Origin: Amphiscolops sp. MND2022
Taxonomy: Eukaryota
Direction of reading: 5' to 3'
Assembly (NCBI GenBank): GCA_964187785.1
Contig: OZ076409.1
Span: 5,396,001-5,460,000, forward strand
DNA: 64,000 nt
Part shown: positions 1 to 54,133 of the stretch, piece after piece
Layout of the letters: every line of letters begins with the position of its first letter
How positions within the stretch are numbered: position 1 is the first letter of the stretch
Translations under genes and position numbers: made by a program
The notes under the pieces: generated by a model
The model's database searches: none
Told to the model about the DNA's origin: nothing
Seen by the model: only the letters and a program-made list of their open reading frames with translations

Positions 1-1
1 C

Positions 2-421: not shown

Positions 422-655
422 TGAGAAAGAAGTATTGTTTTTGTTTTCAAGAGCGATTTGAATTTGTCAGAAGAAAGCAATGAGATTTTGTTGAAATGAA
501 TTTTATTATTCAGTCAGCAGCAGAAGTGAAGAGAAGAGGTTTTGTCAGCATTATCAGCATGTTATTGTTAGTGAAGTGAGTTTATTGTAGAGAGAGTGGC
601 ACTTGAGCATTGTTATATTTTAAGTGATTTTGGTTTCTGGAGAAAAGGAGAATAG

Positions 656-667
656 CTCCTGTCACCA
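656..667 (-). promoter_or_regulatory. Primer binding site TGGTGACAGGAG (probably tRNA-Leu-like)
   Basis: TGG start directly after the LTR terminal CA; identical 12-mer at 30678-30689. Confidence 0.75.
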
Positions 668-1080
668 TGTCATAGATCAAAAAGTTTAGGCAGAGCGGTG
701 GAAAAGTTTTATTCATTTTGGCAAATCTTCTAGGAGCTGAAGGGTTCTCTCCTATTGAGATTCTCCGGAAAGTGAGAGTTGATGTTTTGAATAATTAATT
801 AGAGTGTTTCAGAGAGATGAAGTTATTTACAAAATGTAAGAAGGAGTTTAGCATAGTTGAAGATATACTCAAAATATCGAAAAGAAATGATAGAGGTTCT
901 GGTTGAACGTGTTTATAGTTCACTAGTTCTCTCAGTTGTGTGTCAGGTCCACTTCCAGTGCTACAGAGGCTTTCTCATCGTATTCGTGTTGATCTGTGAT
1001 TGGCTGCCACATCTGATTAGTCCACGTCTGTCCTGTGAATACTTGAACGAAATTTTGTACATGATTCTTGAATCATGACA
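668..1080 (-). mobile_element. 5' LTR (413 bp) of a Gypsy-type retrotransposon extending left of the window
   Basis: Bounded by TGTCAT...ATGACA inverted termini; followed on the minus strand by PBS TGGTGACAGGAG (656-667) and then gag. Confidence 0.8.
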
Positions 1081-1552
1081 CATCGCCACTACAAAATTGA
1101 ATTTTTCGTTTGATTAAAAATGATCATGCTCCGTTGAAATTGATTAAAAGTGTGGCTCTTTTCTCTGAACGTTCAAGAAACGGTCATAAGTAGGCTCCAA
1201 ACAAACAAACAAACTATCCCCAGTGGCTGACAGTTACTTGTGCGAGTTCACGTGGAGACAACAAATCAAAAGATTTATTTGAAGAAATGTTAAACGATAT
1301 AGCCAAATATAATCCTTTATGTTGAATTTTTTTCTTTGAAATTGTGGGGAAAAGGAAAAAGAGCCGCAATTCTTATCATTAAAAAACTCACATCATCAAT
1401 TTGAAAAAAGACAACTTTTATTGGACAAACAGTTCATTGCAAAAAAAGAAAATGTTAAAACTCCATTTTGAGTTCAATCATTGAAAATATGCGTTGCAAT
1501 TTTACTATGGCAACTCACTTCAACTTTCTCGACAATTCTGATTGGAAGTAGT

Positions 1553-1950
1553 TTTGTAGTCGGTGCCTTTCTCAAGAAAAGAGCCGACTATAGTCATGAC
1601 TTTTCGTCAGTGTTTTTTTCGATACACCTTAAGTGACCCAAATAGTTCTACCAAAAGTTCTGCAAAATTTTAAATTGTACCTGTTGGCCAAACTTTTCAC
1701 CAAAGGGTCCCTCCTTCGTTTTTTTTGGAGTTTTGCGACAGAATGGATGAAAAATCTCAAAGCGTCCCCCCTGGCACGCCAATTCGGTCCAACTTTTGGT
1801 TTTTCGGGTGCTGTAGAAGAGAATACTTTGATACATTTCAGAAAAAGCCATTTTCGAGTCTCAAGGGTACCTCCGGGTATTTTTGGCTCCCAAATATTTC
1901 AAACACTCTGTTTTTTCTTCAACCTTGAGCGAGGAGCCGACTTGAGTCCA
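1553..1950 (+). mobile_element. Degenerate copy of abundant Helentron/HINE-like non-autonomous repeat (family A)
   Basis: 5' TAGTCGGTGCC, 3' GAGCCGACTT subterminal inverted motif, internal AAGGGTCCC motifs shared with many copies in the window. Confidence 0.5.
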
Positions 1951-2630
1951 AACGAGACTACCCCTCTTGATTTATAAGCCTCTGGGTGGATGTAATTTAT
2001 TCTGTAATTTATTGAAAATAGGTCCAACTTAAGTAACGTGGTTCTGTGTTTTTTGAGCCTGAATTGGGATGCCAACTTAGAAAAAAACTTTTTCAGAGAT
2101 GCTATTTTTTGTTTCCGCCCTCGTTGAATGAAGTTTTTCAATGATATATGGAAATGCCTGCTCCACTATTTGCGAATTAGAAGTTGAATTATAGTGGAAG
2201 AGTTTGCTGAAAGCTTGAAATGTCTCAGTTATTTTTTTCTTTGATATTTTTTGCTATTTGGTCATTTGACATTTTAGGTCTGACATCAATCTAATTAGAT
2301 GATTGGATCTGAAAATTGTCTGAACCGCAAATGATGGCACAGATTTCATCTGAATGTTAATAAAGATTTGCATGATTCCCGCAAAAAAATGCTGCCATTT
2401 TGAATTTGTGCTTAAGAAGTATTTTACAGATTCGAGTGAGAAGTACGTCGCCTACGTTCCGAAAACCGCTGATTTCCCTTTCCTGATAAACGGCTTTTTC
2501 ATATGGAAAAGAAATTGGACGACAATTCATAGATTTTCACTTCAAATTAAAAATTTGACGTCTTTGAAGTGAAATGTCAATAATTGTTTTTTTCTATATT
2601 TACATTCACGTTTTAAAAACTTCAAATTTT

Positions 2631-3197
2631 TAGGAGTCGGAAAAAATTTTCGACTACTTATGCAATCGTGCTGTTTTTAGGAGTCGGAAAAAATTTTCGA
2701 CTACTTATGCAATCGTGCTGTTTTTTTGTTTTTTTTCTCCCGACCTTTTCATGAAAACTTCAAATTTCTCAACAACTGTCCATACGATTTTCACAAAATT
2801 TTGCACAGTCATTCTACACCCAAAGGGGCCCCTGCGTGTGCAAAAGCATCAAAGTCGTATGGCTGGGATGTGAGAAACATAGCCAAATTTAGCCAAAAAA
2901 TGGCCAAAAACAGCCATTTTTCGACTTTTTTCGATTTTCTCAAAAACTGTCCATACGATTCGAACGAAATTTTCTACAGTCATTCTACAACATATTATGG
3001 TCCTTTATGTGCAATTTCATTAAATTCGTATGGCTGGGATGTGAGAAACATACCCAAAAATAGCCCAAAAATGGCCAAAAACAGCCATTTTTCGATTTTT
3101 TCGATTTTCTCACAAACTGTTCATACGATTCGTACGAAAGCGAGTCAGAAGGAAAAAGACTTAAGCCGACTCCTTTACCGCATATGCGGCTCTGGTT
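2631..3197 (+). mobile_element. Helentron/HINE-like element (family B) with internal ~171-bp repeat units
   Basis: Sub-TIR AGGAGTCGG / CCGACTCCT, 3' palindrome CCGCATATGCGG then CTGG and a T-run; 5' 47-bp end duplicated in tandem. Confidence 0.6.
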
Positions 3198-3341
3198 TTT
3201 TTAATTTTTTTCTCCCGACCTTTTCATGAAAACTTCAAATTTCTCAAAAACTGTCCATACGATTTTCACAAAATTTTGCACAGTCATTCTACACCCAAAG
3301 GGGCCCCTGCGTGTGCAAAGGCATCAAAATCGTATGGCTGG

Positions 3342-5820
3342 GTGAGTGGGGGCATCCCCAAAAATTGTTCTGAGGGATGGGTAGGGCCCCTATCCCGAGA
3401 TCGAGGGCGGAGCTAAATAACAACCATATCCAAAATGTAAACTTTTAGTGAGATCTCGAAAACTGTCCGTAGCATTGGGCTGAAACTTTGCACACGTGCA
3501 CAACTCGATATTCTAAGCACTTTTTTCCTCTGACGTTTTGCCGAAATGATCTTTGGTTTTTTTGAAAACGACTTTTTCAGTTTTTTCTCAATCATGACCT
3601 CATAACTTGTCTCAGAGTACTCGGAGCGATTCAGACGTGGACCACAATATTGTTCAACGGTTCGTAGGGAGTGTGCAGGGCAATTTTGGCGGATGGAAAT
3701 CGGATGGAAACAAAGTGAGCAATAGAGAAATTTCCAAGAATTTTTTTTGAAAAAATATTTTTTTTAACATTTTTGCCCAAATTTTCAAAGACACAGTCAC
3801 AGTGGGTAGTTTCTGCCCAAATTATTGCTCAACAAGACCATTTGGCCTATTTGCGGCAGTTTTAGCGTACCAGCATTGCCGGTGAAAAAATATGTGACTT
3901 CGAACATTCAAAATGTTTTTTTTTTCGATTTGACTTTTTTGTTCATCTTCAAGCCGCTCAAAGGTAAGAAACTTCCACACAACTTAGATTGCAAGTGGAT
4001 GCATGTGGAAAGTACTCTGATGGACGAGAAAAATGGGCTATAGAACAACTCTCTATCTTAATCTGACGTTGACTTATGATGTTTTGGATATGCGATTGAG
4101 AAATGTTAAAATTTTCAAAAAATGAAAATGGAAGACAAGTCTCATTGAAAACTTATGTTCAGCAGAGCTGTTCAATTGACGTAGTTTAGTGTACCAACAC
4201 TCATCAATTTTTTCGACCTATTTTAAAAAAGTGTTGAAGTCTGCATTAAGTATCAGTTAACAAGACATACTCAAGTACATTCTCATCTCTCCCCACTGTC
4301 GGGGGAGATGAGAATGTACACTTCGAAAGCCAAAATATGCTACCTTCTCAACTTCTTCAACCTCGTCAACCGGCACGCAGACGACACAAAACTGTTTCCA
4401 GTAACTCCATGACTTTTAGCTGTAGGTTCTTTAAAAATATCGCAGTGGTGATACTAAGTGCTCCAAAATTGAATACATATAGTTAACCATGGAAATACTT
4501 TAAGAACATCTGTCATCGTGATAAATTTTTCGCACCCATCCACTAGCTTATCCTGTGAGGACGTGCATCCGTCTTGGTGATTGGGGAATCCCCAAAAATT
4601 GTTCTGAGGGATGGGTAGGGCCCCTATCCCGAGATCGAGGGCAGAGCTAAATAACAACCATATCCAAAATGTAAACTTTTGAGTACGATCTCGAAAACTG
4701 TCCTTAGCAGTGGGCTGAAACTTTGCACACGTGCACCACTCGATTTTCTAAGCACTTTTTTGTTCTGACGTTTTGCCGAAAAGATCTTTGGTCATGCCGA
4801 AAAACCCTATTTTTTCAAGAAAAAACGACTTTTTTCAGTTTTTTCTCAATTATGACCTAATAACTTGTCTCAGAGTGCTCGGAGCGATTCGGACATGGCC
4901 CACAATATTGTTCAACGGGGAGTGTGCAGGGCAATTTTGGCGCCAATCGGATGGAAAAGCAGTGAGGAAGAGACAAATTCCGAGAAAAAGTTTTTTCTAC
5001 CATTTTTGCCCAAATTTTCAAAGATACAGTCACAGTGGGTAGTTTCTGCTCAAATTAGTGCTCAACATAACACCTTGGCCTAGTTGCGGCAGTTTTAGCG
5101 TTCCAGCACTGTCTAGTCAAAAAAAATATGTGATTTCGAATATTCAAAAAATAATTTTCGACTTGACTTTTTTGTTCAACTTCAGGCTGCCCAAAGGTAA
5201 ACTTCCACACAACTTAGACTGCAAGTGGATGCATGTGGAAAGTACTCGGATAGACGAGAAAAATGGGCTATAGAGCAACTCTCTATCTTAAGTTGACGTT
5301 GACTTTTGATGTTTTGAGTGTGCGATTGAGAAGTGTTAAAATTGTCAAAAAATGAAAATGGAAGACAAGTCTCATTGAAAACTTATCGATAGACGTTCAA
5401 CCAACCGCAGAGCTGTTCAATTGACCTAGTTTAGTGCACCAATACTCATCAATGTTTTTGACCTCTTTTAAAAAGTGTTGAAATGTGCATTAGGTATCAG
5501 TTAACAAGAAATACTCAAGTACATTCTCATCTCTCCGAACTGCCGGGGGAGGTGAGAATGTACACTTCGAAAGCCAAAATATGCTACCTTCTCAACTTCT
5601 TCAACCTTGTCAACTGACACGCAGAAGACACAAAACTGTTTCCAGTAACTCCATGACTTTTACTGTAGGTTCTGTAAAAATATCGCAGTGGTGATACTAA
5701 GTGATCCAAAATTGATTACATATAGTAAACCATGGAAATACTTTAGGAACATCTGTCATCGTGATAAACTTTTCGCACCCAGTCACTAGCCAATCCTGTG
5801 AGGACGTGGCATCCGTCTTG
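3342..5820 (+). repeat. Head-to-tail dimer of a ~1.24-kb element (3342-4576 and 4577-5820)
   Basis: Both copies begin GTGA(G/T)TGGG...CCCCAAAAATTGTTCTGAGGGATGGG and end GAGGACGTG(G)CATCCGTCTTG; colinear throughout. Confidence 0.85.
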
Positions 5821-6790
5821 GATGTGAGAAACATAGCCAAAATAAGCGCAAAAATGGCTGAAAAACAGCCATTTTTCGACTTTTTTCGATTTTCTCAAAA
5901 ACTGTCCATACGATTCGAACGAAATTTTGTACAGTTATTCTACACCATATTGGAGTCCTATATGTGCAATGACATCAAAATCGTATGGCTGAGGTGTGAG
6001 AAACAGCCAAAATTAGCCCAAAAATGGCCAAAAAACAGCCATTTTTCGACTTTTTTCGCTTTTCTCAAAAACTGTACATACGATTCGAACGAAATTTTCT
6101 ACAGTTATTCTACACCATATTTGAGTCCTATATGTGCAATGGCATCAAAATCGTATGGCTGGGATGTGAGAAACATAGCCAAAATTAGCGCAAAAATGGC
6201 TGAAAAATAGCCATTTTTCGACTTTTTTCAATTTTCTCAAAAACTGTTCATACGATTCGAACAAAATTTTCTACAGTTATTCTACATCATATTAGAGTCC
6301 TATATGGGCAAAGGCATTAAAATCGTATGGCTGGGATGTGAGAAGCATAGCCAAAATTAGCCCAAAATTGGCCAAGAAACAGCCATTTTTCGACTTTTTT
6401 CGCTTTTCTCAAAGACTGTCCATACGATTCGAACGAAATTTTCTACAGTTATTCTACACCATATTAGAGTCCTATATGTGCAATGGCATCAAAATCGTAT
6501 GGCTGGGATGTGAGAAACATAGCCAAAATTAGCCCAAAATGGCCAAAAAACAGCCATTTTTCGACTTTTTTTGATTTTCTGAAAAACTGTCCATACGATT
6601 CGAACGAATTTTTCTACAGTTATTTTACACCTTATTAGAGTCCTATATGTGCAATGGCATCAGAATCGTATGGCTGGGATGTGAGAAACATAGCCAAATT
6701 TAGCCCAAAAATGGCCAAAAAAACAGTCATTTTTCGATTTTTTCGATTTTCTCACAAACTGTTCATACGATTCGAACGAAAGCGAGTCAG
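5821..6790 (+). repeat. Tandem array of 170-172-bp units (about 5.5 copies)
   Basis: TCGTATGGCT recurs at 5981, 6151, 6323, 6495, 6666; same unit at 2760-3340. Confidence 0.92.
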
Positions 6791-7718
6791 AAGGAAAAAG
6801 ACTTAATTCGACTCCTTTACCGCATATGCGGCTCTAGTTTTTAAAAGGTAAGGGCTTTTTCAAGCAAAACCATCACATTAATGTTAATGATAAATGATTT
6901 TCGCTTTATCGGAAAAACGAAAACAACCGCTTTAGGCTCAATTGGAATAGGCTGCTTTTCGAAACCTCCATACTACCGAAGACTTCAAAACAATGACCAT
7001 TGAAAATTTCAAATCAAACCTCTCAAGCTATCAAAAAATGAAAAAAATAGGGAGCTGGTAGCATCTGGCGGATAAAAAGGACAACGTTGAGCAGTCAGAC
7101 TTTTATGACATTGAGCAAGTCACTTTGAAACCACAGCTTCAAGTCCACCATTACTTGACCTCTTGGCTGAAAATATGGTACCATAGCTTGCTATGGGGAG
7201 ATAACCGCTTTTTGCGACGAATAACAGAATTGGATTTCGTTAAAAACACTTGTACGACTGCCTCTAGAGTTAGATGTCATTCTATCTAAATAATGCAAAC
7301 TTTCGACATCAATTTCGTTTGTCGACGAAAATCTCATCGCAAAAGATATCGTCCAAGAGGTTCGAATCGTCTTGGGAAATGTTGAGTGGAAGCAAAACTT
7401 TTTGGTTTGTTAAATTCAGAATTGAAGATTAACATAGAGTCCGTCTATACTTGAGTGGAACCGGAGACTTTTAACAAGTTACATCCTTGAGCTAGGTGTT
7501 TGGAGTGCGAAACGTGGCAGTGTTGGTTTCCAAGCTTGTTGACTGGGCTGGGCGCATTTCCGGTAAAGTGAGGTAATCGTACGTAACGAAACATTTTCTA
7601 ATCAGCCCAGAATTCAAAGCGCAAATGTACTCAGCTTTCTAGTCCACATGACATAGTAGTCACTTACCAAAATCGATTTGCCATAAGCGGCACTCACAGT
7701 CACTTGTACTTGGAGGAA

Positions 7719-10338: not shown

Positions 10339-11469
10339 GCAAATTTCACAAGATGACAAAAACTCGAATCATGCCCGTTATATCTTTTCATCTTCTCGTT
10401 TGATTGATCAAACTTCCTTTGCAATTCTGATTAAAGCAATACCTCGGTAAACAAGGAAGTTAGAACTGGTTTAATCACTTCATATAAGCGTCAGAAGTTT
10501 TGAAATGTTTTGCAGTACCGGAACTTAGTTGTGGCAAATTCCATTTGTTATACGAATGAAGAGTTTCCTTCGACTTTTAGTTGAATTGTTGTACATTGTC
10601 GCACAAATTCTCGATCAAAACAATTCAGTGGGTTCAGGAGATCATAAGGAGTCTCAGAAAGAATAGAATTTCTGAAAAAAACTACTCAATCCTCGAAAAA
10701 CTCAAATTTCAAGAAAATTTTTCAATTTGCATTTTCCAACTTTTTATTTTCGGCCTACATATAATAAAGGGGATCATGATCTGTGTTGCGTTTTTTCCAA
10801 ATTCTTCCAAAATTCCACTTTATCTTCACTCCACTTCACTTAGTTACTTGACTATTTTTTAGTTACTTGACTATTTTACTAGTATCTAAAATTGCGCCAG
10901 GGCGCCGTTGGTCGTGCGTGTGCCTGACAGACATTTGGTCGTAGGTTCGAACCCGTGCTGATGCGATACATTTTTCCCGGTGCTTAGTGGGCGTCTTGTT
11001 CAGTATGAAACAAATTTTGGAAACTAGACAGAATTCTAAACTTTTGTAGTTGGCAAATTTTTGGATTCGTGACATTTTACGAGAAATTTGGTTTCGAATT
11101 TTGCCATTTTGAGCAATGAGGTTGCGATATTTTAGAACGCTAGTGTGCCGCAACTCTATAAGCCTATGTGTCTGAATTAGGAAAGAAAGAAAAATTAATT
11201 GAATTGGGTATATACCATGATGTTCCATTCGAAACTAGGTTTTATGTGTTTCTCGGCGTTTTCATTTCAGAACCTTCAGTTACTTTTTTTCGTGGATATG
11301 AGGTGTGAAATTGACGACTTAGCCAGGAAGCATCGTGTAAGAATATACGAGGAAAAATATTTTTGAAATGCAAGTTTTGCCTATTTTCTGTACCTCCAAA
11401 ACCCCCCTCCCCCACCCAACCATCAAAATGCTTTGGGCAAAATATACAGAAGTTTTTCAAAATGGCACC

Positions 11470-12020
11470 CCTGGTTGGAACTGCTTGAACTTTTTACATG
11501 TTTTTGTAGGTTACCAACCTAATTTTCCATGATTTTATAAAGTTCTCAATGAAACGTCCAATGAACAAAACTTCACTGATTCAATTTAATCTTATCAAGC
11601 TGCCTATAAAATGCATCCTAAATTTGGCGGCAATTTTGCGCCGCAAAGTTTTGCAGGTTTCATTAAGACGCCGTTCTAATTTTGAAAGCAGCTGAGACCG
11701 TCATCAATTTTACCGATGCTTTTTACCGTCATCAATTTTTGCTTTCAATGCAAATGAACTTCAGTCTTGTTATAAGTTTCAAAGTAGCGTCATATTCAGC
11801 GTGCTATCTGACTAACGGTGATTACATAACATACTTACTTGAGGAAGTTACGCGTGAAAACAAAGTGATCACTGTGGTGAAGAAGTGGAAATGTTTTCAG
11901 TTTAAATTGAAATAGTGGAAGCTGCATTGTAATCCTACAAAATGTTTCCATGCAGGCTCCCGGAATTTTCCATGTCTTGTAAAAAATTAGCCTGCATCTT
12001 TCCATGCAGCATGTAAAAAG
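11470..12020 (+). repeat. Dispersed ~550-bp repeat, second copy at ~15645-16190
   Basis: Both start TGGTTGGAACTGCTTGAA and share TAGCGTCATATTCAGCGTGCTAT...GAAGAAGTGGAAATGTTTTCAG. Confidence 0.75.
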
Positions 12021-14677: not shown

Positions 14678-16324
14678 TATTAGTTAATCAGCGTACATAT
14701 TATTCCATTGCCAACTAAGCTATACTGTCCTTTCTTAGCTTTGTGATTACCTTTACCCAACCGCTTAGAAAAACACACTAGAGTTTAAGTGCTTTCAACA
14801 ATTGTAAAAAAAGGTTCATTTTGAAAGCTCCTCAAGTTTTCTGCAGACGCTTGATGAATCTCTATACGAAATTTCAAAGGTTATTCACAAAAATTCAAGT
14901 GAAACAAGATTCAAGAAGCTTTTTTTCGAAAAGGAAAAGGGAAATGTAAAAACATAACAGATCCTGTAAAGTGTTGCAAGATGTTGTGCAATTGAAACAT
15001 ACTTCAAATCCTACATCATAGGACTAATCTCAACATCGGATATGTCAAAAAGAGGAAAAATTACGAATGGTAACTCCGACAATGTTTTATTTTAAACCCC
15101 CCCAGGTACACCTTGATTCAAATTCTCATTTCTGAGAACGTGTATCTACGGAGACCTTCACTAGAAATCATAACAAGGTTTTCTCGCCTTGATCGTTGCT
15201 TACCACTCTTTCCAAGTTTTTGTTCAGGCGGCTGGTATCGTCAAGAGAACATTTAAGAGGATCGTTTTCAGTTACCCAAGATACTGTTAGAATCAAAACT
15301 TCAGATCTATACTAAATAGAGTATTACAAGAAGCATTCTAAAGTATCGGACGTTCAAATATCGTATTTTGACTTCATTCTTTTGGCATATGGCTGATACT
15401 AACCTGGCTGATTCCATTACTCACGAAAAAGATAATTGATTCGGAAGACCGCTTCACTCAATATATGAACTTTTGTTTTTTTTTCATGTCAGTTCTTCAA
15501 AACTGCCTTGGTCGATGGTTTTTCGACATTTCTCGTCATTCGGAATAAATAGTAATTCCCTTAAATCACGTATGTGTACTTTAAGTTCGCGGACTGCTTT
15601 CATTTGATCATGAAGTCACGTCGTATAGACTACAGGAAACTATCCATGGTTGGAACTGCTTGAAATTTTTACAAGTTTTTGTATGTTACCAAACTAATTT
15701 TTCATGATTTTATAAAACTCTCGGGAAGACTTCCATGCATTAAAATTTGACTGATTCAATTTAATTCTGAATAAAATGCCTAAAAAATGCATCCTAAATG
15801 TAGCGGCAATTCCGAAACACGAAGTTATGCAGATTTCACCAAGATTCCATTCTAATTTTGAAAGCAGCTGTGTCCTCATTAATTTCATTGCAATTTCAAT
15901 GCAAATAAACTTCAGTCACATTATAAGTCTCAAAATAGCGTCATATTCAGCGTGCTATTTGACTAACGGTGATTACATAATGTACTCACTTGAGAAACTT
16001 ACGCGTGAAAACAAAGTGATCGCGGCGGTGAAGAAGTGGAAATGTTTTCAGTTTTAATTGAAATAGTGGAAGCTGCATTGTAATCCTATAAACTTTCATG
16101 TGTGCCTTCAGTATTTTCTATATTTATCAATACTTTAGAATGCATGCATGGATGCAACATGAAAAACTTTTCGGCATGTTCGACTAGTGACGCTGACGAA
16201 GTTTGCTCAAGAATCGTTTTCAGAAATAACTTCAATAATGTGTTTCTCTGCTTTGCTTCTTACAAGTCCATTAGATTGTCCCTGTCAACAAGAATGTTTC
16301 AGGAAGTTGATATCATGAAAAAAT

Positions 16325-24732: not shown

Positions 24733-25386
24733 CTAAACCATAATAATTTTATGCTTCCAAAAGTACAGCAGGTGAGACCAAAGGGTGCCCCTGTCGTAAG
24801 CACGCGCGTTTGTGGATGTAGTTGGACCGTCTTTCTGACAGTCCATAAATGGCTTACTTCTCGAGTTATCTCTGGAATCTGAGTTTCGCAGAACTTCGGA
24901 ATATCCTTCCGGTCTCTCGGCCGGAACGTTCCATCTTTCTCTGGTCAAATGTCCCGATCCGGCCACAATGGCATTTTGAATCTGGGGTAAAACCTGATTG
25001 CTAATTGCATCAATTATGGCTCTCTGTATCTGAACACTGACACTATTCATCATCTCGTCCATCTCTCTAGATATTCGGGAATTCAATTCACTCGACAGTC
25101 TATTTATCTCAGCACTAGAATTACCTCCAGCAGAGTTTTGGCCGTAATCGGCATTTGGACTAAGTCCGTCATTTCTTGAATTTAAGTACCTGTTTTCATC
25201 ATTATTTTCAAATTGATCACCAAAAGTACTTTCAGGTCTTCTGGCTTGATTACTACTGAGGCTTTCATCTCTCTCATTTCTACTGAAATGGTTTTCTCCG
25301 AGCATCATATCTACATTTTCAATGTCCGAAATTATCTCAACTCCTCTAGATTTTCTGGTTTTCTTCTGCTTTCTTGTTGTAGGCAT
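24733..25386 (-). CDS. Gag N-terminal segment duplicated in the 3' LTR, reading out into flanking DNA
   Basis: Identical to the first 198 aa of ORF 30436-31284 except one residue; diverges exactly at the LTR end (AYD|RGT versus AYD|MVTG). Confidence 0.6.
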   Translation of the reverse strand: MPTTRKQKKTRKSRGVEIISDIENVDMMLGENHFSRNERDESLSSNQARRPESTFGDQFENNDENRYLNSRNDGLSPNADYGQNSAGGNSSAEINRLSSELNSRISREMDEMMNSVSVQIQRAIIDAISNQVLPQIQNAIVAGSGHLTRERWNVPAERPEGYSEVLRNSDSRDNSRSKPFMDCQKDGPTTSTNARAYDRGTLWSHLLYFWKHKIIMV

Positions 25387-26973
25387 TAGAAAGAAAGTCC
25401 GAGGTAAAACAGTGAATTAGGTTTTATTCGGAAAATAGGATTTTGTACGTTGTATCGTAAACAGGTATATCAAACTAAACTTGGAGAAGCAAAATACAAT
25501 TGTGTCCCTCTCGGAAAAATACCAATATATATACCCCTGAGAGGGTGACACTCACATTCCTTTTTAACAATCTATTTACAAATTCCATAAAGGGCACATG
25601 ACTATGGCGGGTGACCACTAACATTCATTCATTTTTAGCGGCGTCAACTGCATCAAAGCACTTTAGGAATTTGTCCCGTTAGGGTCAAAGGGCAATCATA
25701 CCTAATTCATCCGCAGCAACATCATTTAAAGTTTACATAAAATATGGAATGCACTCAAATGCATTTTCTAACTGCAAATACTATCATCAAAGGGGAGCGG
25801 AGGAATTTAGCCTTATTATATTAGGCAAACAACACTTTGACCAAACATCAAAACTAATACTTTCAAATTGTTTACAGTGAGAGGAATGTAAACTATTTAG
25901 CGGCACGTGCCTACACACGTGCGTAGAATCAACAAAACAAAGACACAGTTTCATGCAATAGAAATGAACATAATATAGCAATATGGCCGAATACGGCCAT
26001 TGGACTTGGGAGCTGGCCAATAGTGAAGGCCGGAATAGGACAGGTGACGGGTATTCGGATTGCTACTACTGGCCGTTATTATTGCACTAATTGGATTTAA
26101 AAAGCTCATTAACATCTTCAAGTATATAAATATAATCTTACATGACTGTAAAACAAACTCATTCATGCTTAAAAGCATCTCTAATAATAATAAGCAAAAT
26201 GGCCTAAACCGGCCATTTGCCTTTTGTCCCGCATTACCAATCTAATATAACGTCAAGTGGCCATATACGGCCAATCAATTAAAAATGTGTACAGCGCTTT
26301 ACACAATCTGGCCTGAATAGGCTAATTGCCTCGTATTAAGTAAACATTATTAAAATACTGGTCAAACGGCCTTAACCGTCTGAAAGAGCTAAGTCTGTGG
26401 TGTAGTTAGTTAATACTGCACTAGAGGGGTTATTCAGCCTAAGAGTACAAGCACATGAATCCTGGTTAATAATTAGCATCACAATTGCGCTTTTTGTGAA
26501 ATGGCCGGAACCGGCCGTTTGACTGAATATTTATTAAAAGTAGCGAAGTTATGTCCACAGGCCTTATTCGGCCATTAATGAATGGAAATATTAACTGCGT
26601 AGCAAATGGAGTAATTTGATTGGACAAGGCCGCGTGCTCAAGTGACGTATCTGGTACGGGATTTTATCAATAGCAACTATAATTAAAACAATTAGCAATG
26701 CTTCTTCTAACACCTTTTATCATTGCATCTGACGTATTAAGACAGCTTCAAGTACTTTCCAAGAAAATAAACAGCACTACTGATTAAATAGCACAGATTA
26801 CTTGATGAAAGCTAAATAGGCCGAAACCGGCCATTGGACCAGCGTCCGCGAGCATAGTGGTTAGATTAAGGCAAGCGGCCATAACCGGCCAAATAATGTA
26901 TTGCTGAGAGATAATACTAATACTAGCTATACTGCACTGTGATTGGTTAATTTGCAGGAGGCAGCCTGCGACA
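24792..26973 (-). repeat. 3' LTR (2182 bp)
   Basis: Direct repeat of 30690-32871; only three substitutions noticed by eye. Confidence 0.95.
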
Positions 26974-27112
26974 CTGCGGGTGGAATAAATAAAAACGACC
27001 CTGCATTAAGTCCATTCAAATAAGCTTCCTTCATAATTGCTGTGACGTAGGCCGGCTCACCTCTTGGTGTTGATCTCCTTATCACTCCCGTCATCAGAAT
27101 AGGTGTGAACAA
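26927..27112 (-). CDS. Remnant of a small accessory ORF crossing the internal region/3' LTR junction
   Basis: GEPAYVTAIMKEAYLNGLNAGSFLFIPPAVSQAASC aligns without gaps to GEPYYVKEARRRAFIEGMHAGPYVLIPRGLSRAAAC (59518-59844). Confidence 0.6.
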   Translation of the reverse strand: MFTPILMTGVIRRSTPRGEPAYVTAIMKEAYLNGLNAGSFLFIPPAVSQAASCKLTNHSAV

Positions 27113-28266
27113 TGCTCAAGTTGTTAATATCAAATACACTCGTCTCAAGTGGGTAATTAACGAGTCGCTTGGAGGCAATTAACGGCACGCACCAAAGGTT
27201 TCTCTTAAAATGGTTTTAGCCAATCAAAATTGACTTTCGATAAAATGGAAATTGGATAGTAAAATGGTGAAAATAATAACTAAAATAATCCAGAATGCGG
27301 AAATTCTAACTAAATGGTAATAAGGGCAACGGAACAAAACGGCAAAACGGAACAAGGTAAATGGCCATAATCGGCTTCTAAGTAACTAATTTGTAAATAA
27401 TGAGCAATCTTCTGTACATTTCGCTGGCAGACTCCATGCACAGTTTTAAATTCGTAAATAGCCATAAAATATTAACCCGGTAATCTCTTCAGCCACGAAC
27501 TCCAACTTTTCAATTTTGAGTATCATTATTCTAATTCCTTTATTATTTGGATTTTTGTTCATTTGAATTCATCTTTACGACGTCCATCTCTCTCCGACTT
27601 CATCTTTGTTGCTGACTACATCTTCCTCGGAGTATTCCGGAGCATCTTCCCCTTTTCAGCCGAGCTCGGCCACTTTCCCCAACTTCACCAGCCGAATAAG
27701 GACGCTTACCCAGAAGGAGTTTCCATCACTGCAGGATGTCTTCAAACACAAGTTGATCTGGATTTTTATTTTGAACTAATTTAACTTGATCAGGGTTAAA
27801 ATTTGTTCATAAAATGCTTCCTGCTTCCATCACTAAACACGTGATAACACGTTTCATTCAAATTTTTAGAACACTTTCGAAAGATTTCTGACGCGGCAAA
27901 ATGGATTTCTTTCAAGGAAGCTAACCGCCAAATTTCATCTCTTTCTGTTTATAGAATCAGAACAAAGAGACTACTCGAACACCAGATCCCAATTCACCCG
28001 TGGGTACAGGTTATGCTGTTGTGTTTTCACCGCCCCTGTTTCCTCCTCTTAGAGTAGAGAGGTCCCCAAGTAGTACTGACAGTGTTGATGTTACAGCTTA
28101 CGCTGACGAAAAGGTCAGACTCCATGCAGAGGCTCAATTGCTAGAAGGGTCACAGGTCGCTGAATCATTCATGGGCGACCAAGAGACAAAGGACGAAGAA
28201 GGAAGAAGGGTAGATGCAGTAGGAAGAGAAGTAGAAGGAGAGGTAGAAGCAGAGGGAGGAAGGACT

Positions 28267-29577
28267 TTAAAAATGAAAAGGAAAAGAAGGAAAGAGAGCA
28301 GTGTTCCTTCTTGGACGCTCATTAATCTTTTCGTAGTATCTGAAGTCTTCTGAGTAGTTTGGATTAGGATTAGGTCTCAGATTATATCTTCCACCTCTAG
28401 GACTCCGATTTTCATTTCCTTCATCATTTTGCGATATTTCGGGCACGATAATATCATCCCCCTTTTTTGGAGACTTTTGTGCATCGCTATCATTAGCAGA
28501 ATTTCGTTCTGAAAAATTTGCATCGTTTCCTTGTCTTTCGGAGAGATCCAGCAAAGATTTTTCTGGATTTTTGTGGTAAACGGCCGAATCCGGCCAATCA
28601 GAGTTTTCATTTCTAGTAGCTTCACTATCTTCATTTGCATTGCTGACGTCACTTTTCAGTCGTTTATCTCGACTGTGCTCTGTATCGTTGACGTCATTCG
28701 GACAATCAGTCGTGATTATGTAATCCGCTTCATTCTCGCTTGCGTTATCTGCGTTCGCTTTTGCCGTAGTCAGTCTTTCGCCATTCGGCAAGCTAGCCGG
28801 AATAGGCTCGCTGCCTCGTGTAGCTAGTTGTTCACCAAAGTTTGTTTCCCACGTAATTGTGTACAAATCGTCCTGCGGAATGACAATTTCTTCGTCCGGC
28901 AGTAATCGCTCTTCTCGGAAATTGTCCTCAAGCGGTTGATTGGGGACAAACTTTTTGAGGCGAATTCGATGCAAGATCTGAGTTTTAAGGTTAATGTTGG
29001 TTGACAGGGGTATACAGTCTGGTTCACCATTTTTGGTAATGAGTACATTCAGGAACTGTCTCTCGTCTAGTAGCGATTGTGGAATTGATTCTGCACAGTT
29101 TTCGATATTCTCGGTTCCCAAGGGGTTTGGAAACACCGGATGGTTTAGCGCTCTGGTTTTCTTGTTATGGGTAATTGGAGGGTTCTCGTGGACTGTCTTG
29201 TTGCAATGTTCAATATCGTCTAGAACATATTGAAATTGCAATAGATCCTGGTTGCAGATCTCAGTGTCCCAGTAGTGATCTCTTCCATAATCTGGGTCGA
29301 TGTATGTAGGGTTGTAGTCGTCTACTAAGGGAATGGGCCTGAATCGGATAGTAAAGGTAGTTGTGTAATCAGGATCCCAAACAGGAATTGATTTCTGGAA
29401 CAAATGGGTATTATTATAGGTAATAATGATAGCTTTTTCAATCTGCTGCTGCCAGACAACAGAAGGATAGCCCATCAATTGTTGTTGGTAATTATGAAAG
29501 TTTTTGGTTTGAGGGTCCGATTTGATGTATTGACAGACAGAGACTAGTTGGTTGTATTGGAGTGGTGGCGAAGCTAG
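28267..29577 (-). pseudogene. pol: Pol-frame remnant: pre-protease region joined in frame to post-integrase tail
   Basis: Open from the slippery site at the gag end to 28267; no DTG, YxDD or DDE motifs; junction IPLSTNINLK|TQILHRIRLKKF near 28985; acidic tail ending RYNLRPNP. Confidence 0.7.
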
Positions 29578-30446
29578 TTTTTTGACTCATCTTTGCTTGA
29601 TGAGGATTGGGAATTGGATGATGTTGGCTTGTGATGGGGTTTTGAGGATTTGGGGTCAGGATCGCTGTCCGACGAGTCCTCTGGCCTGGTGCGTTTGGGC
29701 TTGAGATGCGCACCAGCACCTTGCCAGCATCTCTCCTCATGGTGGTTTGTCTTGCCACATGTCCCACATTTAGGATAAACCTTTATCTGTGTGGGCTTGC
29801 CTTGTTGGGCATCTTTCTCCTTTTTCTTTTTGCGCTTTTCACAGTCTTTGACCATGTGGCCCTTTTCTTTGCAATAGTTGCAGGTAATGTCACTCATTTG
29901 GACGTTTGATGGAACAGTTTTTGTTTTTGTGGCTGAAGACGTCATTGATGCCATTGGTAGGTCATCAGATTCTTCAAGGGCGTTTAGCTCCAATTCTCTC
30001 TCAAGATGAGCGACAATTTCGTCATAGGAGCCGTTCTCTAATCTGGCCATATTTACTGATCTTTTTTGCTTGGGCGGCAGTTTTGCGTATAGGAGACTGT
30101 CAATAATCTTTTGGGCATGGTCTCCGAATGCTTTTTCTGCGCCTTGATTCAGCTCTTCGAAAAAATCTGGTAGTTTTGTCGTATTTGGATCAAATACCAG
30201 ACGGTGCCATTTATGTTTGGCAGTTGCTTGAGATTCGGGTTTGACGTATTTCCGTCTGAAGATGACTAATACGTCCTCGAGAGTTTGTCTGTTAGCTGTG
30301 CTAATGTTTCGGAATGTTTGCAGAGCGTTTTTGCTCAAAAGCGAATGAAAATGATTAATTTTCATCTGCTCGGACATCAACTTGATCATCGTGTGGAATA
30401 GATATACGAACAGCCCGAACTTCTTGCTTTTGCCGTCAAAAGTCAT
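29574..30446 (-). CDS. gag: Gag capsid/nucleocapsid with two CCHC zinc knuckles
   Basis: TFDGKS capsid start; CNYCKEKGHMVKDC and CGTCGKTNHHEERC; ends TCA AAA AAC TAG (slippery heptamer). Confidence 0.9.
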   Translation of the reverse strand: MTFDGKSKKFGLFVYLFHTMIKLMSEQMKINHFHSLLSKNALQTFRNISTANRQTLEDVLVIFRRKYVKPESQATAKHKWHRLVFDPNTTKLPDFFEELNQGAEKAFGDHAQKIIDSLLYAKLPPKQKRSVNMARLENGSYDEIVAHLERELELNALEESDDLPMASMTSSATKTKTVPSNVQMSDITCNYCKEKGHMVKDCEKRKKKKEKDAQQGKPTQIKVYPKCGTCGKTNHHEERCWQGAGAHLKPKRTRPEDSSDSDPDPKSSKPHHKPTSSNSQSSSSKDESKN

Positions 30447-31284
30447 AGTGTTTGAGTTGACTGGGCGGATAGTGGGTTGTTGGACGGTTCTGCATACTGG
30501 TCAAGACATCAGCTAGCCTGTTGATAGGATCTTGTTCCGGGGCCGGAACGGTCCTTTCTTGTGCTGGGATCGTCGTGTCGAGCAGGGGATTGAGGTCATC
30601 ATGAGATCGGTTGAGATGACTTTTTGATGGCATTCGTCCCGTGAGAAACTCAGGAATATCAGTTGGAGATTCGTTTTCTCCTGTCACCATGTCGTAAGCA
30701 CGCGCGTTTGTGGATGTAGTTGGACCGTCTTTCTGACAGTCCATAAATGGCTTACTTCTCGAGTTATCTCTGGAATCTGAGTTTCGCAGAACTTCGGAAT
30801 ATCCTTCCTGTCTCTCGGCCGGAACGTTCCATCTTTCTCTGGTCAAATGTCCCGATCCGGCCACAATGGCATTTTGAATCTGGGGTAAAACCTGATTGCT
30901 AATTGCATCAATTATGGCTCTCTGTATCTGAACACTGACACTATTCATCATCTCGTCCATCTCTCTAGATATTCGGGAATTCAATTCACTCGACAGTCTA
31001 TTTATCTCAGCACTAGAATTACCTCCAGCAGAGTTTTGGCCGTAATCGGCATTTGGACTAAGTCCGTCATTTCTTGAATTTAAGTACCTGTTTTCATCAT
31101 TATTTTCAAATTGATCACCAAAAGTACTTTCAGGTCTTCTGGCTTGATTACTACTGAGGCTTTCATCTCTCTCATTTCTACTGAAATGGTTTTCTCCGAG
31201 CATCATATCTACATTTTCAATGTCCGAAATTATCTCAACTCCTCTAGATTTTCTGGTTTTCTTCTGCTTTCTTGTTGTAGGCAT
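30436..31284 (-). CDS. gag: Gag N-terminal region starting inside the 5' LTR; frameshifted from the rest of gag near 30475
   Basis: 282-aa ORF crossing the LTR end (30690) and PBS; alternative frame TIRPVNSNTMTFDG links to the next ORF. Confidence 0.8.
   Translation of the reverse strand: MPTTRKQKKTRKSRGVEIISDIENVDMMLGENHFSRNERDESLSSNQARRPESTFGDQFENNDENRYLNSRNDGLSPNADYGQNSAGGNSSAEINRLSSELNSRISREMDEMMNSVSVQIQRAIIDAISNQVLPQIQNAIVAGSGHLTRERWNVPAERQEGYSEVLRNSDSRDNSRSKPFMDCQKDGPTTSTNARAYDMVTGENESPTDIPEFLTGRMPSKSHLNRSHDDLNPLLDTTIPAQERTVPAPEQDPINRLADVLTSMQNRPTTHYPPSQLKHYDF
30678..30689 (-). promoter_or_regulatory. Primer binding site TGGTGACAGGAG
   Basis: Immediately after the 5' LTR terminal CA; same as 656-667. 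Confidence 0.8.
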
Positions 31285-32871
31285 TAGAAAGAAAGTCCGA
31301 GGTAAAACAGTGAATTAGGTTTTATTCGGAAAATAGGATTTTGTACGTTGTATCGTAAACAGGTATATCAAACTAAACTTGGAGAAGCAAAATACAATTG
31401 TGTCCCTCTCGGAAAAATACCAATATATATACCCCTGAGAGGGTGACACTCACATTCCTTTTTAACAATCTATTTACAAATTCCATAAAGGGCACATGAC
31501 TATGGCGGGTGACCACTAACATTCATTCATTTTTAGCGGCGTCAACTGCATCAAAGCACTTTAGGAATTTGTCCCGTTAGGGTCAAAGGGCAATCATACC
31601 TAATTCATCCGCAGCAACATCATTTAAAGTTTACATAAAATATGGAATGCACTCAAATGCATTTTCTAACTGCAAATACTATCATCAAAGGGGAGCGGAG
31701 GAATTTAGCCTTATTATATTAGGCAAACAACACTTTGACCAAACATCAAAACTAATACTTTCAAATTGTTTACAGTGAGAGGAATGTAAACTATTTAGCG
31801 GCACGTGCCTACACACGTGCGTAGAATCAACAAAACAAAGACACAGTTTCATGCAATAGAAATGAACATAATATAGCAATATGGCCGAATACGGCCATTG
31901 GACTTGGGAGCTGGCCAATAGTGAAGGCCGGAATAGGACAGGTGACGGGTATTCGGATTGCTACTACTGGCCGTTATTATTGCACTAATTGGATTTAAAA
32001 AGCTCATTAACATCTTCAAGTATATAAATATAATCTTACATGACTGTAAAACAAACTCATTCATGCTTAAAAGCATCTCTAATAATAATAAGCAAAATGG
32101 CCTAAACCGGCCATTTGCCTTTTGTCCCGCATTACCAATCTAATATAACGTCAAGTGGCCATATACGGCCAATCAATTAAAAATGTGTACAGCGCTTTAC
32201 ACAATCTGGCCTGAATAGGCTAATTGCCTCGTATTAAGTAAACATTATTAAAATACTGGTCAAACGGCCTTAACCGTCTGAAAGAGCTAAGTCTGTGGTG
32301 TAGTTAGTTAATACTGCACTAGAGGGGTTATTCAGCCTAAGAGTACAAGCACATGAATCCTGGTTAATAATTAGCATCACAATTGCGCTTTTTGTGAAAT
32401 GGCCGGAACCGGCCGTTTGACTGAATATTTATTAAAAGTAGCGAAGTTATGTCCACAGGCCTTATTCGGCCATTAATGAATGGAAATATTAACTGCGTAG
32501 CAAATGGAGTAATTTGATTGGACAAGGCCGCGTGCTCAAGTGACGTATCTGGTACGGGATTTTATCAATAGCAACTATAAATAAAACAATTAGCAATGCT
32601 TCTTCTAACACCTTTTATCATTGCATCTGACGTATTAAGACAGCTTCAAGTACTTTCCAAGAAAATAAACAGCACTACTGATTAAATAGCACAGATTACT
32701 TGATGAAAGCTAAATAGGCCGAAACCGGCCATTGGACCAGCGTCCGCGAGCATAGTGGTTAGATTAAGGCAAGCGGCCATAACCGGCCAAATAATGTATT
32801 GCTGAGAGATAAAACTAATACTAGCTATACTGCACTGTGATTGGTTAATTTGCAGGAGGCAGCCTGCGACA
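30690..32871 (-). repeat. 5' LTR (2182 bp)
   Basis: Direct repeat of 24792-26973, adjacent to PBS. Confidence 0.95.
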
Positions 32872-34119
32872 GCCCCCTTTGGGTTTTTTTGGCACTATGC
32901 GACTTTTTTTCGAAAATTTTCGGATTCTATCAAAGGGTAACCCCTTGCATTTTTTTGAAGTTTTTGGTTTGTAAAAACGTTAAATGAGCCTGAATGGCCT
33001 CTTTTTGAGTTTTTCGGCATTGTGCGACTTTCTAAAAAAAAACTTTTTTTCGAAAAAAAAATTTCAAAATTTTTTTTTGAAAAAAATAATTTTTCCAAAT
33101 GTTTCCAATAGTTGTTCTTTGAATATTTTTGAGCCTTAGATATGACGCCGACTTGAGACGATCCCGTCTTGTTGTCACTCAAAACAGGAAGTTGTTGATT
33201 TCTTTTTCTCTGCTTTTTCAAGAATGCGTGACTTCATTCGTAAAAATAGTGTGAACAAAGTTTGCATCTCAAATCCAAACTGTCACATTGGAAATGAATT
33301 ACAATTGAAGGTTTCTGTTTTATGTCAAAGTCTCTTTGTCATAATATTTCCACAAAGTTTCCAAAAAAACATGGTAAGGGGGATTGAAAAGAGCCGACAT
33401 ATCAGATCTTTTTACTATGTCCCCCCTTTTGACTCGTTACACTATGCCCCCCATCTATTGGTTTTCATTTGCAAATCTCCACTCAGCCAATCAGAAGCAA
33501 TTATACTTCATACATGCATTTAAAACTGTTTCACTTTGTCCTCCCTTTTGGCTAGAGGGGGGACACAGTGAAAGAGGTCCGTAATATCTCAAAAGAAGGC
33601 AAGATTCGCTCACGTCGGCGCTTCCTTCATCCCTAGTTGGATCTGTTGGGAAGTTTTGCATGTTCACCAATGTTGCCAAGCACTTTCAGTATGATTTTGG
33701 AAGTTCCTTAGTGAATCATTCATTTTCCCAAATATTTCCCAGATACAATGCCATTTCTTCAAGTATTTATTAGGATTTCTATACAACTTTGTGGGTTTTC
33801 AGAGAAACAACAAGGACGAGAAAGACAAATGAAAGTAAATTTTTAGAAAATTTCAGACTGGCCTAATTAAATGTGGAATCTTCTTTCATAACAGGAAGTT
33901 AAACAGAAAAGAGCCAAATACTCATCAGGAGTATGTCTTATAACAAGAAAATCTAAAATCAGAGAAATCACATTTATGTTGATAAGCTGATAAGTTGAAG
34001 TGCATCATTCAAAGTTATTTTTTTCTGCCCATATAAGGAAAAAAGAACAATTTTTGAGAAATATTTGGAACTCAAAAAGTTTTTTATGCGTTCTATATTA
34101 GTGAACCGGAACATGTATC

Positions 34120-50923: not shown

Positions 50924-51960
50924 ATGAAGTGCTTAATTTGTAGGGAAAGTAGTGAAAAATCACTGTGTGATGATTGCAATAAAAAAAAGATGTGCGGATT
51001 GTAATGAGATGAAAATGGACTTCTATTCATATGAAAATTGTGAAATGTATAACGTTTGTAAAGAATGTTTCAACAAAAAGGTAAGGGGTGAATTTTGTAA
51101 TAAGAAATTAATTAAGAGTTATTTAAGGTCTCATATCAAGAAGCAGCATATACAACATAATATCCAGCATCATTATAATCAGCAGCACATACACCAGCAA
51201 CGGTATAATGGTAGTGGTATTGGTAGTGGTGTTTACAACGATAGTGCTTTACAATGATTCAATACTGCTTGCATTGGTGTTTCCGGAGGTCCTTCCGGAG
51301 GTCCTTCCGGAGTTGCTTGCAATAGCGAGCAGAATACCGATAGTGAGAATAATAGGACATTAATAGTTGGTCCATCATTTTGTGGTAAGACTCATTTGCT
51401 GTTGAATAAATTACGATTGAATCGTTTGAATGACTATGAGACAAATTCCCCATCGCCACAAATTCATATCATTACGAGGAGTCCGGAACAATACGAAGAT
51501 GTGAAACTAGAATTAGAACTAGGAGATGCTTTGCAAGACGTTTCAGTGGAAGAAAATTTGGAGGATTTGGAAATGTACCGGGGGTGTTGTGTAGTATTTG
51601 ATGATATGCTAGACTCCAATCAGAAATTAATAGATCCATTTTTTACTAGAGGAAAGACACAAAAACTTGGATATTTGTAATTTATCACAAAGTTACTTCA
51701 ATGTACCAAAAAAGACAATTAGAAACAATTCGAATGTAATAAGTTTGTTTCAACAAGCATTTGAAGATTTTGAACACATTTATAGAGATATAGCAGGTTT
51801 TGATATGTCTTATGACGAATTCAAACAACTGTGCAGAGAGGCATGGAAAAAAATACTGTTATTTTTTAATAAACAGGCTAGAAGATAAAAATAGGAGAAG
51901 GTACAAGATTTGCAATGAATCTAATTCAAATTACAAGATCTTTAATCCACATACTGAACC
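50924..51960 (+). pseudogene. Zinc-finger-fused A32-like packaging ATPase 2
   Basis: Cys/His-rich ORF 50952-51257 is in frame, across one TGA, with TLIVGPSFCGKT (51369-51392), VVFDDM, FFTRG and, after a frameshift, LSQSYFNVPKKTIRNNSN. Confidence 0.82.
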
Positions 51961-53225: not shown

Positions 53226-53600
53226 TCAAAATAAAGTAAGTAGTTTTAATTGATCAACTAATTCGTCTGGATCAGATGGGAGGCAGACGATGTGGCTCTG
53301 CGTGTAGCCCTGCAATCCGCTTCCCGCGTAGTTTTGCGTGTAGCTCTGCAATCCGCTTCCTAATTGAATGTCGTCGATAGTATTACCCCAATGGGATTGT
53401 TGATAGCGAGAGTACAACTCTTCAATAAAATAATATCTCGTTGATTTGTTATCCCCATAGTTTATGTTATAATTCATATCATCTAAGAAACTATAAATTG
53501 TGTCCAGGTTATTTATTTCTCTAGCAATTTGTGTATTAGTTATAAAATATTGAAGATCTAGGTCATTTAGATCGTATGAAAGCTCATTCTGGAAAGTCAT
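53226..53600 (-). pseudogene. Same conserved protein, copy 2, truncated by a 4-bp insertion
   Basis: Near identical to copy 1 until QLKLL, then frameshift at ~53237. Confidence 0.6.
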
Positions 53601-54119: not shown

Positions 54120-54133
54120 TTATTAAATATATT

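Follow-up and report, generated by a model that had tools for sequence, protein, structure and literature searches.

A reading frame that crosses the 3′ LTR boundary of Ty3/gypsy-type retroelements in Amphiscolops sp. is probably the end of a conserved accessory gene

We analyzed a stretch of 64,000 nt from Amphiscolops sp. MND2022 (GenBank assembly GCA_964187785.1, contig OZ076409.1, positions 5,396,001–5,460,000), referred to as the window, which contains a long terminal repeat (LTR) retroelement, designated here element 1, and a decayed relative of it, element 2. In both, an open reading frame (ORF) runs through the point where the internal region meets the 3′ LTR, at which a polypurine tract (PPT) would be expected. 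Sequence comparisons suggest that this frame probably forms the 3′ terminus of an accessory gene that is conserved, designated ORF3 by us, in a clade of Ty3/gypsy-type LTR retroelements with the order gag-pol-ORF3-3′ LTR. Positions are those of the window, a slash within a sequence marks the LTR boundary, and the branch to which element 2 belongs is called the sister branch.

A reading frame through the LTR boundary

On the minus strand, the internal region of element 1 meets the 3′ LTR as ...TTTATTCCACCCGCAG/TGTCGCAGG (in a longer reading, ...GGGTCGTTTTTATTTATTCCACCCGCAG/TGTCGCAGGCTGCC...), with 26974 as the last internal base and 26973 as the first base of the LTR. The junction is spanned by a 62-codon stop-to-stop frame (26927–27115, minus) that contains the peptide IPPAVSQAASC and ends in ...FLFIPPAVSQAASCKLTNHSAV and a stop codon. 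The junction of element 2 reads ATTCCTCGGGGTT/TGTCAC at 59568/59567, and its frame (59518–59844, minus), which contains IPRGLSRAAAC, ends in ...VLIPRGLSRAAACDDNVYGVRY and a stop. The two elements show no similarity to each other at the junction with blastn, yet tblastx detects 42% identity over 36 aa; additionally, the TG of the LTR occupies codon positions 2–3 in both, within a GTG codon for Val in one and a TTG codon for Leu in the other. In the sister branch, the homology of four out of four solo or 5′ LTR loci begins exactly at TGTCAC, with unrelated flanks, and therefore the boundary is fixed in this branch too. The features of the junction are as follows.

26927–27115, minus strand: ORF3 relic of element 1, the 62-codon frame, which crosses 26974/26973 and extends into the LTR by 14 codons and the stop (45 nt in all)
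26952–26980, minus strand: junction core of element 1 (−7 to +22 around the boundary), CCCGCAG/TGTCGCAGGCTGCCTCCTGCAA; presumed 3′ end of the plus-strand primer plus terminal attachment (att) site of U3, with frozen synonymous sites in both branches
59518–60300, minus strand: frameshifted ORF3 copy of element 2; C-terminal part at 59518–59844, upstream part at 59762–60187 in another frame, and N-terminal ...ITISSD... near 60300
59546–59574, minus strand: junction core of element 2, CGGGGTT/TGTCACGGGCGGCAGCCTGTGA
58451–59567, minus strand: LTR-like segment of element 2, starting with TG at 59567, a boundary backed by the four sister-branch LTR loci
58451–58888, minus strand: decayed N-terminus of gag within this LTR-like segment, with a stop at codon 5

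The frame of element 1 is 65% identical over 48 aa to the last 48 residues of P0146, an ORF3 protein encoded in this genome (E 3e-17), while the rest of the ~261-aa gene is absent; on this alignment, it is a truncated relic comprising the last ~48 codons of ORF3 and not a gene of its own. An earlier note, made from the letters of the window alone, had placed the junction where we find it, and had reported homologous peptides reading through it in both elements and the TG of the LTR in the same codon position; all three observations were borne out. Its description of a conserved ORF holds for the ORF3 family, whose members have ~260–280 aa, and not for the frame of element 1 itself, which is only the 48-codon relic. 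Of the two large elements to which it had referred, element 1 is a true LTR element and element 2 is decayed, with no second LTR nearby, a stop at codon 5 of gag and a frameshift in ORF3.

The ORF3 family

Used as a query, the frame of element 2 matched small unnamed proteins. A profile search retrieved 300 cluster representatives at E ≤ 1e-3, 131 of them at E ≤ 1e-10; the match reaches the C-terminus of the protein in every case, and the full-length forms have 260–283 aa. Within this genome, 146 of 8142 candidate matches were scored, with 74–100% identity, and in 134 of these 146 the matched region is free of stops. The last ~30 codons of an intact ORF3 are inside the LTR, in U3, and therefore the start site of the plus strand and the U3 end recognized by the integrase (IN) are both within coding sequence. 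Of the motifs in the protein, the best conserved is (V/L)SQAAACDG, and it is encoded by the first ~25 nt of the LTR (TG TCN CAG GCN GCN GCN TGT GAY GG).

No Pfam family was found for ORF3: five of the seven proteins scanned had no match, P0143 showed only a below-cut-off match to DUF6094, and P0277, an outlier of 1643 aa, matched unrelated families. There was no usable match in the ESM Atlas; a Foldseek comparison of the model with the PDB gave nothing at E ≤ 0.001, and a VIA wide structure search retrieved only generic helical hairpins (best Z 5.4). The AlphaFold2 model had a pLDDT of 39.5 with 10 sequences and of 62.9 with 150; in the latter, only residues ~170–225 are confident, comprising a CxxC motif followed by a helical hairpin. 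The protein also has an acidic, Ser-rich N-terminus and an SP(L/M)SPPxHERGP motif. From these predicted features, our guess is that ORF3 might be a small regulatory or adaptor protein.

Selection on the codons and a constrained core

Selection was estimated from 26 diverged copies of the sister branch, aligned and reduced to 20 at <93% identity. Pairwise diversity by codon position and dN/dS, which is here a rough ratio, were as follows.

60 codons before the LTR: positions 1/2/3, 0.12/0.11/0.50; dN/dS 0.08
23 LTR-encoded codons up to the stop: positions 1/2/3, 0.25/0.17/0.57; dN/dS 0.17
After the ORF3 stop: positions 1/2/3, 0.46/0.49/0.53; dN/dS not computable

By these estimates, the ORF3 protein is under selection as far as its stop codon, ~92 nt inside the LTR. 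Superimposed on this pattern, the diversity at third positions drops to 0.21 in the segment from −7 to +22, against 0.52 in the other coding sequence (Mann-Whitney p 2.9e-5), and dS in this core is 0.33, against ~1.4 elsewhere. In the branch of element 1, CCCGCAG/TGTCGCAGGCTGCCGCCTGTGA is invariant in the six sub-lineages out of six that were read, and the synonymous sites immediately upstream vary. Since the synonymous sites from −7 to +22 are frozen, a nucleotide-level signal appears to be laid over the codons, and in these alignments the ~30-nt core is constrained at the nucleotide and at the protein level alike. Such a pattern would be expected of a cis element, presumably consisting of the 3′ end of the plus-strand primer and the U3 terminus bound by the integrase.

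Plus-strand priming

Priming of the plus strand from a purine tract is regarded as nearly universal in LTR elements and retroviruses, and annotation tools make use of it. In the branch of element 1 there are 5–6 purines in the last 15 nt before the LTR, and neither element 1 nor any of the six sub-lineages has a polypurine tract; in all of them the heptamer preceding TG is the non-purine CCCGCAG. Furthermore, no 12-nt window with at least 10 purines is found nearer than −101 to the 3′ LTR of element 1. A purine-rich stretch ~50–60 nt upstream, corresponding to the AGR codons of an RRR motif, was considered as a primer and discarded, because the LTR would then start there. Copies of the sister branch have from 5 to 9 purines in the same 15 nt, and the heptamer is CGGGGAG, with the 6-purine run GGGGAG, in 18 of 26; this short G run after a U-rich stretch looks like the 3′ end of an ordinary or retroviral PPT. 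A non-canonical plus-strand primer appears likely, from base composition, for the branch of element 1, and is a weaker claim for that of element 2.

The plus strand might still be primed in an ordinary manner, if a short primer ending in ...AG and cut by the RNase H of the element sufficed and the lack of purines were within the normal spread of PPTs. This is a serious possibility, although on balance we doubt it. The Ty1 tract that adjoins its LTR contains pyrimidines, and AG/TG is found in 22 of the 26 sister-branch copies. The ORF3 motif could be located in 88 of 150 homologues; in these, the boundary is mostly preceded by PGG (18) or PRG (followed by Val in 15, Leu in 6 and Met in 1), encoded by G-rich codons, and about a dozen have PPA, APA or similar, which is the kind seen in the branch of element 1. 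In a review, PPTs are described as having no common consensus, those of Ty1 and Ty3 as short, and the all-purine rule as not inviolable, and it is considered that PPT and reverse transcriptase (RT) may co-evolve (PMC3185511). However, in the branch of element 1 no more than two purines are consecutive, the AG directly before TG, and the 100 nt next to the LTR contain no 12-nt window with at least 10 purines, yet this branch is the most prolific here despite its lack of purine richness.

A non-canonical start could operate as follows. The RNA immediately upstream of TG, which follows a U-rich run and is CGGGGAG or CCCGCAG depending on the branch, would serve as plus-strand primer; an RT/RNase H that had co-evolved with this primer would recognize the heptamer, so that a long purine run would be unnecessary. 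In its broadest form, the proposal would be that a widespread gypsy-type clade starts its plus strand without a polypurine tract, that the start is specified by ~30 nt which double as coding sequence for the conserved C-terminal motif of an accessory protein without known kin, that both LTR termini are in genes, and that the ORF3 protein or an adapted RNase H may help to choose the primer. As a whole, we consider this proposal unlikely.

The frozen synonymous sites could also be explained by a palindrome or hairpin at LTR nt 2–23 (e.g., GTCGCAGGC-TGCC-GCCTGTGAC), which would be the real signal for priming, for the integrase or for a DNA-binding protein. The hairpin predicted in the RNA is stable in locus L056 (−17.8 kcal/mol, z −3.2) and in element 2 (−17.3 kcal/mol, z −2.8), and a perfect 14-nt palindrome, CAGGCGGCCGCCTG, is common in the sister branch. 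Nevertheless, no significant hairpin is predicted in L031 (z −1.1), L047 (+0.2), L034 (−0.2) or element 1 (−0.9), the stem being weakest in element 1, which is the most abundant form; the paired columns are nearly invariant, so that covariation speaks neither way. We consider this explanation improbable.

The earlier note had described the bases preceding both LTRs as not purine-rich, and this stands for element 1 and element 2 themselves (5 and 6 purines in the last 15 nt, respectively), with the qualification that the branch of element 2 has a short G run adjoining the LTR. Its suggestion of searching an alignment of the family for a normal PPT had a divided outcome, with CGGGGAG kept in 18 of 26 sister-branch copies and CCCGCAG in the six sub-lineages of the other branch. 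The coding-constrained att site that it proposed was upheld, as purifying selection acts before the LTR boundary and also beyond it up to the stop ~92 nt inside, in addition to the frozen synonymous sites from −7 to +22; the dN/dS values that it asked for, 0.08 before and 0.17 inside the LTR, agree with this. In sum, its observation is confirmed and its interpretation is partly supported.

Structure of element 1 and its relatives

A comparison of the window with itself revealed a direct repeat pair, 24789–26973 and 30687–32871, with 99.8% identity. The repeat ends given by BLAST overrun by 3 nt, by chance, and reading of the ends places the true LTRs at 24792–26973 and 30690–32871; they have 2182 bp each, differ at three positions and have TGTCG...CGACA termini (TG..CA). 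Element 1 contains the following features.

24792–32871, minus strand: element 1, with two LTRs, a target site duplication (TSD) and a primer binding site (PBS)
24792–26973, minus strand: 3′ LTR, 2182 bp, starting TGTCGCAGG and ending ACGACA, with a second copy of gag codons 1–198
30690–32871, minus strand: 5′ LTR, the other member of the repeat pair, ends read
24787–24791, no strand: downstream copy of the TSD, GGGGC in minus-strand reading
32872–32876, no strand: upstream copy of the TSD, GGGGC, the same five bases at both ends of the element
30678–30689, minus strand: PBS, TGGTGACAGGAG, 12 nt complementary to the 3′ end of tRNA-Leu(CAG) plus CCA, within the gag frame
29574–31284, minus strand: gag, ~572 aa in relatives, with zinc knuckles and, in this copy, a frameshift near 30466–30488
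28267–29586, minus strand: deleted pol, a 439-codon frame joining residues 1–165 to 1474–1690 of a 1690-aa protease-RT-RNase H-integrase polyprotein

The PBS directly follows the upstream, 5′ LTR. Because of the near-identical LTRs with TG..CA ends, the TSD GGGGC, which was checked in the window copy only, and the PBS complementary to tRNA-Leu(CAG), element 1 is a true LTR element of very young age, and its left side, with the PBS after the LTR, is canonical. As a separate observation, the 5′ flank and LTR start (32872–32900, minus) read RGLSQAASCK, because the target GGGGC mimics the codons preceding the 3′ LTR, probably by coincidence; it also resembles the pre-LTR heptamer of the sister branch.

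A pattern for the tRNA 3′ end, ending in CTCCTGTCA, had 1104 + 27 matches in the genome and 3 + 5 with the reversed control; two of the matching loci were fetched, and ARAGORN identified a tRNA-Leu(cag) in one of them, L058. Many of these >1100 tRNA-Leu(CAG)-like ends may be tRNA-derived repeats and not tRNA genes; for instance, contig C8 of this assembly (G000) has at ~35.587–35.629 Mb a dense array, spaced ~240–530 bp, of ends like that of tRNA-Leu(CAG).

The junction of element 1 retrieved 2411 candidate matches in the 1.07-Gb genome, and of the 40 that were scored, 35 cover the junction at 97–100% identity. Twenty other copies were fetched, of which 19 share the ~8-kb form and the starting base of the 5′ LTR, and the 20th had no 5′ LTR match; none of the 20 had a longer interior, RT or IN.

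Within the LTR, TATATA (LTR nt 1441) and AATAAA (LTR nt 1546) occur shortly before the gag ATG at nt 1588, which leaves 198 codons (595 nt), a third of gag, in the LTR; judging from these two signals, our guess is that R might be located shortly upstream of this ATG. These codons are thus present twice, at 30690–31284 and 24792–25386 (minus strand). A complete database Gag of 572 aa aligns unbroken across the boundary between the 5′ LTR and the PBS, and the latter is translated as part of gag. From these alignments, both ends of the LTR appear to be inside reading frames, U3 containing the ~30 final codons of ORF3 and U5 the 198 initial codons of gag.

In P0279, a Pol from the relatives, Pfam domains are gag-asp_proteas (179–267), RVT_1 (578–743), RT_RNaseH (835–933), Integrase_H2C2 (1131–1186) and rve (1207–1302), and its closest solved chain is Ty3 Gag-Pol (7q5b, E 2e-47); by domains and by best solved match, this pol is of the Ty3/gypsy type. 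The gag of element 1 has a weak match to DUF1759 (E 0.008, below the cut-off), a family that is precomputed for many relatives. The BEL/Pao assignment that it suggested was dropped, as the pol of the relatives has gypsy-type and no Pao-type Pfam domains.

Genes in element 1 are arranged as gag, Pol 1–165 + 1474–1690, ORF3 relic and LTR, and those in L035, from the sister branch, as part of gag, Pol 137–437, ORF3 and LTR; the order gag-pol-ORF3-LTR would therefore be common to both branches. A conserved ORF under selection thus lies downstream of pol and crosses the PPT/U3 boundary. No env was seen in the copies read, among which there was no whole autonomous copy.

Element 1 has lost RT and IN, has kept its LTRs, PBS and the 3′ cis region, and has been amplified, with a full gag in most copies. 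Judging from its gene content, it is a non-autonomous deletion derivative without protease, RT, RNase H and IN and without all but the last 48 codons of ORF3, in which the core is kept and of which there are thousands of candidate copies. Its survival might be due to retention of the cis core, with copying in trans by autonomous relatives.

As for element 2, it belongs to the sister branch and is old and decayed. No second LTR was found for it nearby, and the possibility of an intact element with two LTRs was rejected for this reason. Antisense to element 2, 2–3.7 kb upstream of its junction, there are two frames (61679–62323 and 62740–63264, plus strand) with no Pfam family found, both of which recur at the equivalent place in L034 and L031.

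Weighing the accessory-gene reading

That the likeness of the peptides is a by-product of nucleotide conservation in a PPT or att site, with no gene involved, is very improbable. It would agree with the match between element 1 and the most frequent sister-branch form at 16 of the 19 nt that open the LTR, with the frozen synonymous sites of the core and with the condition of the element 1 frame, itself a relic interrupted in 3 of 20 copies. Nevertheless, outside the 30-nt core the variation at third positions is 4–5 times that at first and second positions, before the boundary as well as after it, a periodicity that ends at the stop codon; the homologues have the length of whole proteins, most scored copies in the genome lack a stop, and amino acid identity at the junction persists between the two elements where blastn similarity is gone. 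For the family, this explanation, which the earlier note had named as one that would overturn its proposal, is already contradicted. An artefactual junction, due to a tandem duplication or an assembly error, hardly deserves consideration: the repeats are unusually long (2.2 kb) and hold the start of gag, resembling at first sight a tandem array of partial elements, but this is contradicted by the TG..CA ends, the 5-bp TSD, the PBS directly after the 5′ repeat and the left boundary shared by 19 of 20 independent copies, and by the boundary that all four sister-branch loci with a solo or 5′ LTR have in common.

Several points weigh against the reading of the frame as the end of an accessory gene that overlies the priming site. 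The relic in element 1 shows no sign of selection, with a stop in 3 of 20 copies and an amino acid replacement in 4 of 20; these copies were picked as the best matches to the relic region, so that their 99–100% identity there is biased. In the sister-branch comparison, dS is saturated (~1.4) and many pairs were lost from the NG86 estimates, with 51 of 190 pairs usable in the C-domain, and hence the ratios are rough; the copies are, moreover, transposable element insertions that decay neutrally after landing, which blurs the estimates of selection. The gene order was pieced together from the deleted element 1 and the partial L035 and not from one intact autonomous copy. The branch of element 2 has a correctly placed G tract, and to speak of a missing PPT is an overstatement there. 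Finally, ARAGORN found no tRNA in L057, the other of the two pattern-match loci fetched.

Comparison with known systems

Accessory genes of complex retroviruses run through the 3′ PPT into U3, examples being nef of the human and simian immunodeficiency viruses (HIV and SIV), bel/bet of foamy viruses and sag of mouse mammary tumor virus. ORF3 is like them in being a small non-structural ORF located downstream of pol and over the plus-strand primer site and the U3 terminus; it differs in that the Pfam, ESM Atlas, Foldseek and VIA searches revealed no likeness to them in sequence or fold, in that no env was seen, and in its association with a Ty3/gypsy-type pol. HIV keeps an all-purine tract of 15 nt inside nef, according to passages of PMC3185511, whereas here there are six purines or none. 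With yeast Ty3 (Metaviridae), these elements share the order protease-RT-RNase H-IN, a tRNA-primed PBS, TG..CA ends and a 5-bp TSD. The PPT of Ty3 is given in the same passages as 14 purines, GAGAGAGAGGAAGA (PMC3185511). Ty3 has no third ORF, unlike the elements described here, whose LTRs, in addition, have 2.2 kb and include 198 codons of gag.

In Ty1, TYA starts inside the 5′ LTR, with a few dozen nt of gag in the LTR, the gag frame includes the PBS, and the short PPT is imperfect. The elements described here are similar to Ty1 in the start of gag within the LTR, the translated PBS and the short or imperfect purine tract; conversely, Ty1 is copia-type, with IN before RT, lacks ORF3 and has much less of gag in its LTR than the 595 nt found here. 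ORFs located after pol and before the 3′ LTR are described in PMC4408406 for plant Ty3/gypsy elements of the Tat/Retand group, which are comparable in having an extra ORF without assigned function downstream of pol, although the proteins are unrelated. Element 1 resembles LARD-like non-autonomous LTR elements in being highly amplified without RT and IN, and it keeps its LTRs, its PBS and the ~150 nt that precede the 3′ LTR; it differs from them in the full gag of most copies and in its fused pol ends. In the open-access literature we did not find the arrangement of ORF3 over the LTR described, nor anything on LTR elements lacking a polypurine tract.

Other repeats

Elsewhere in the window there is a region (2720–6842) with a satellite of ~171-bp units (5817–6781) and a tandem duplication of ~1.24 kb (3338–5821), as well as a tandem duplication of ~1.1 kb with 95% identity at 51937–54170. 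A direct repeat pair with ~82% identity, 11469–11941 and 15644–16092, 4.2 kb apart, may be an older LTR element. Two families of short interspersed repeats, D3 and D6 (at 20402, 34123, 35087, 41454, 44810 and 45218, and at 24342, 32874, 43057 and 43920), are scattered around and between the LTR elements; one of them begins AAGCCGGGAACGGCCCAAGTCGGCGCC. Outside the window, L032 contains at 1–3180, antisense to its ORF3 copy and 2.8 kb upstream of the junction of that copy, on the other strand, a gag-protease frame that by eye looks like BEL/Pao (Cys/His knuckle, DSGAS motif) and is probably a separate insertion.

Significance

A very successful branch of these elements, with thousands of candidate copies at 94–100% identity, has an invariant pyrimidine-rich heptamer at what would be the priming site, and the question of what RNase H recognizes thus becomes testable in a natural system. 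The elements also provide an LTR that carries a third of gag. Lastly, an unnamed protein family with 300 cluster representatives would be added to the retrotransposon repertoire as an accessory gene overlapping U3; apart from these elements, such a layout is known chiefly in complex retroviruses.

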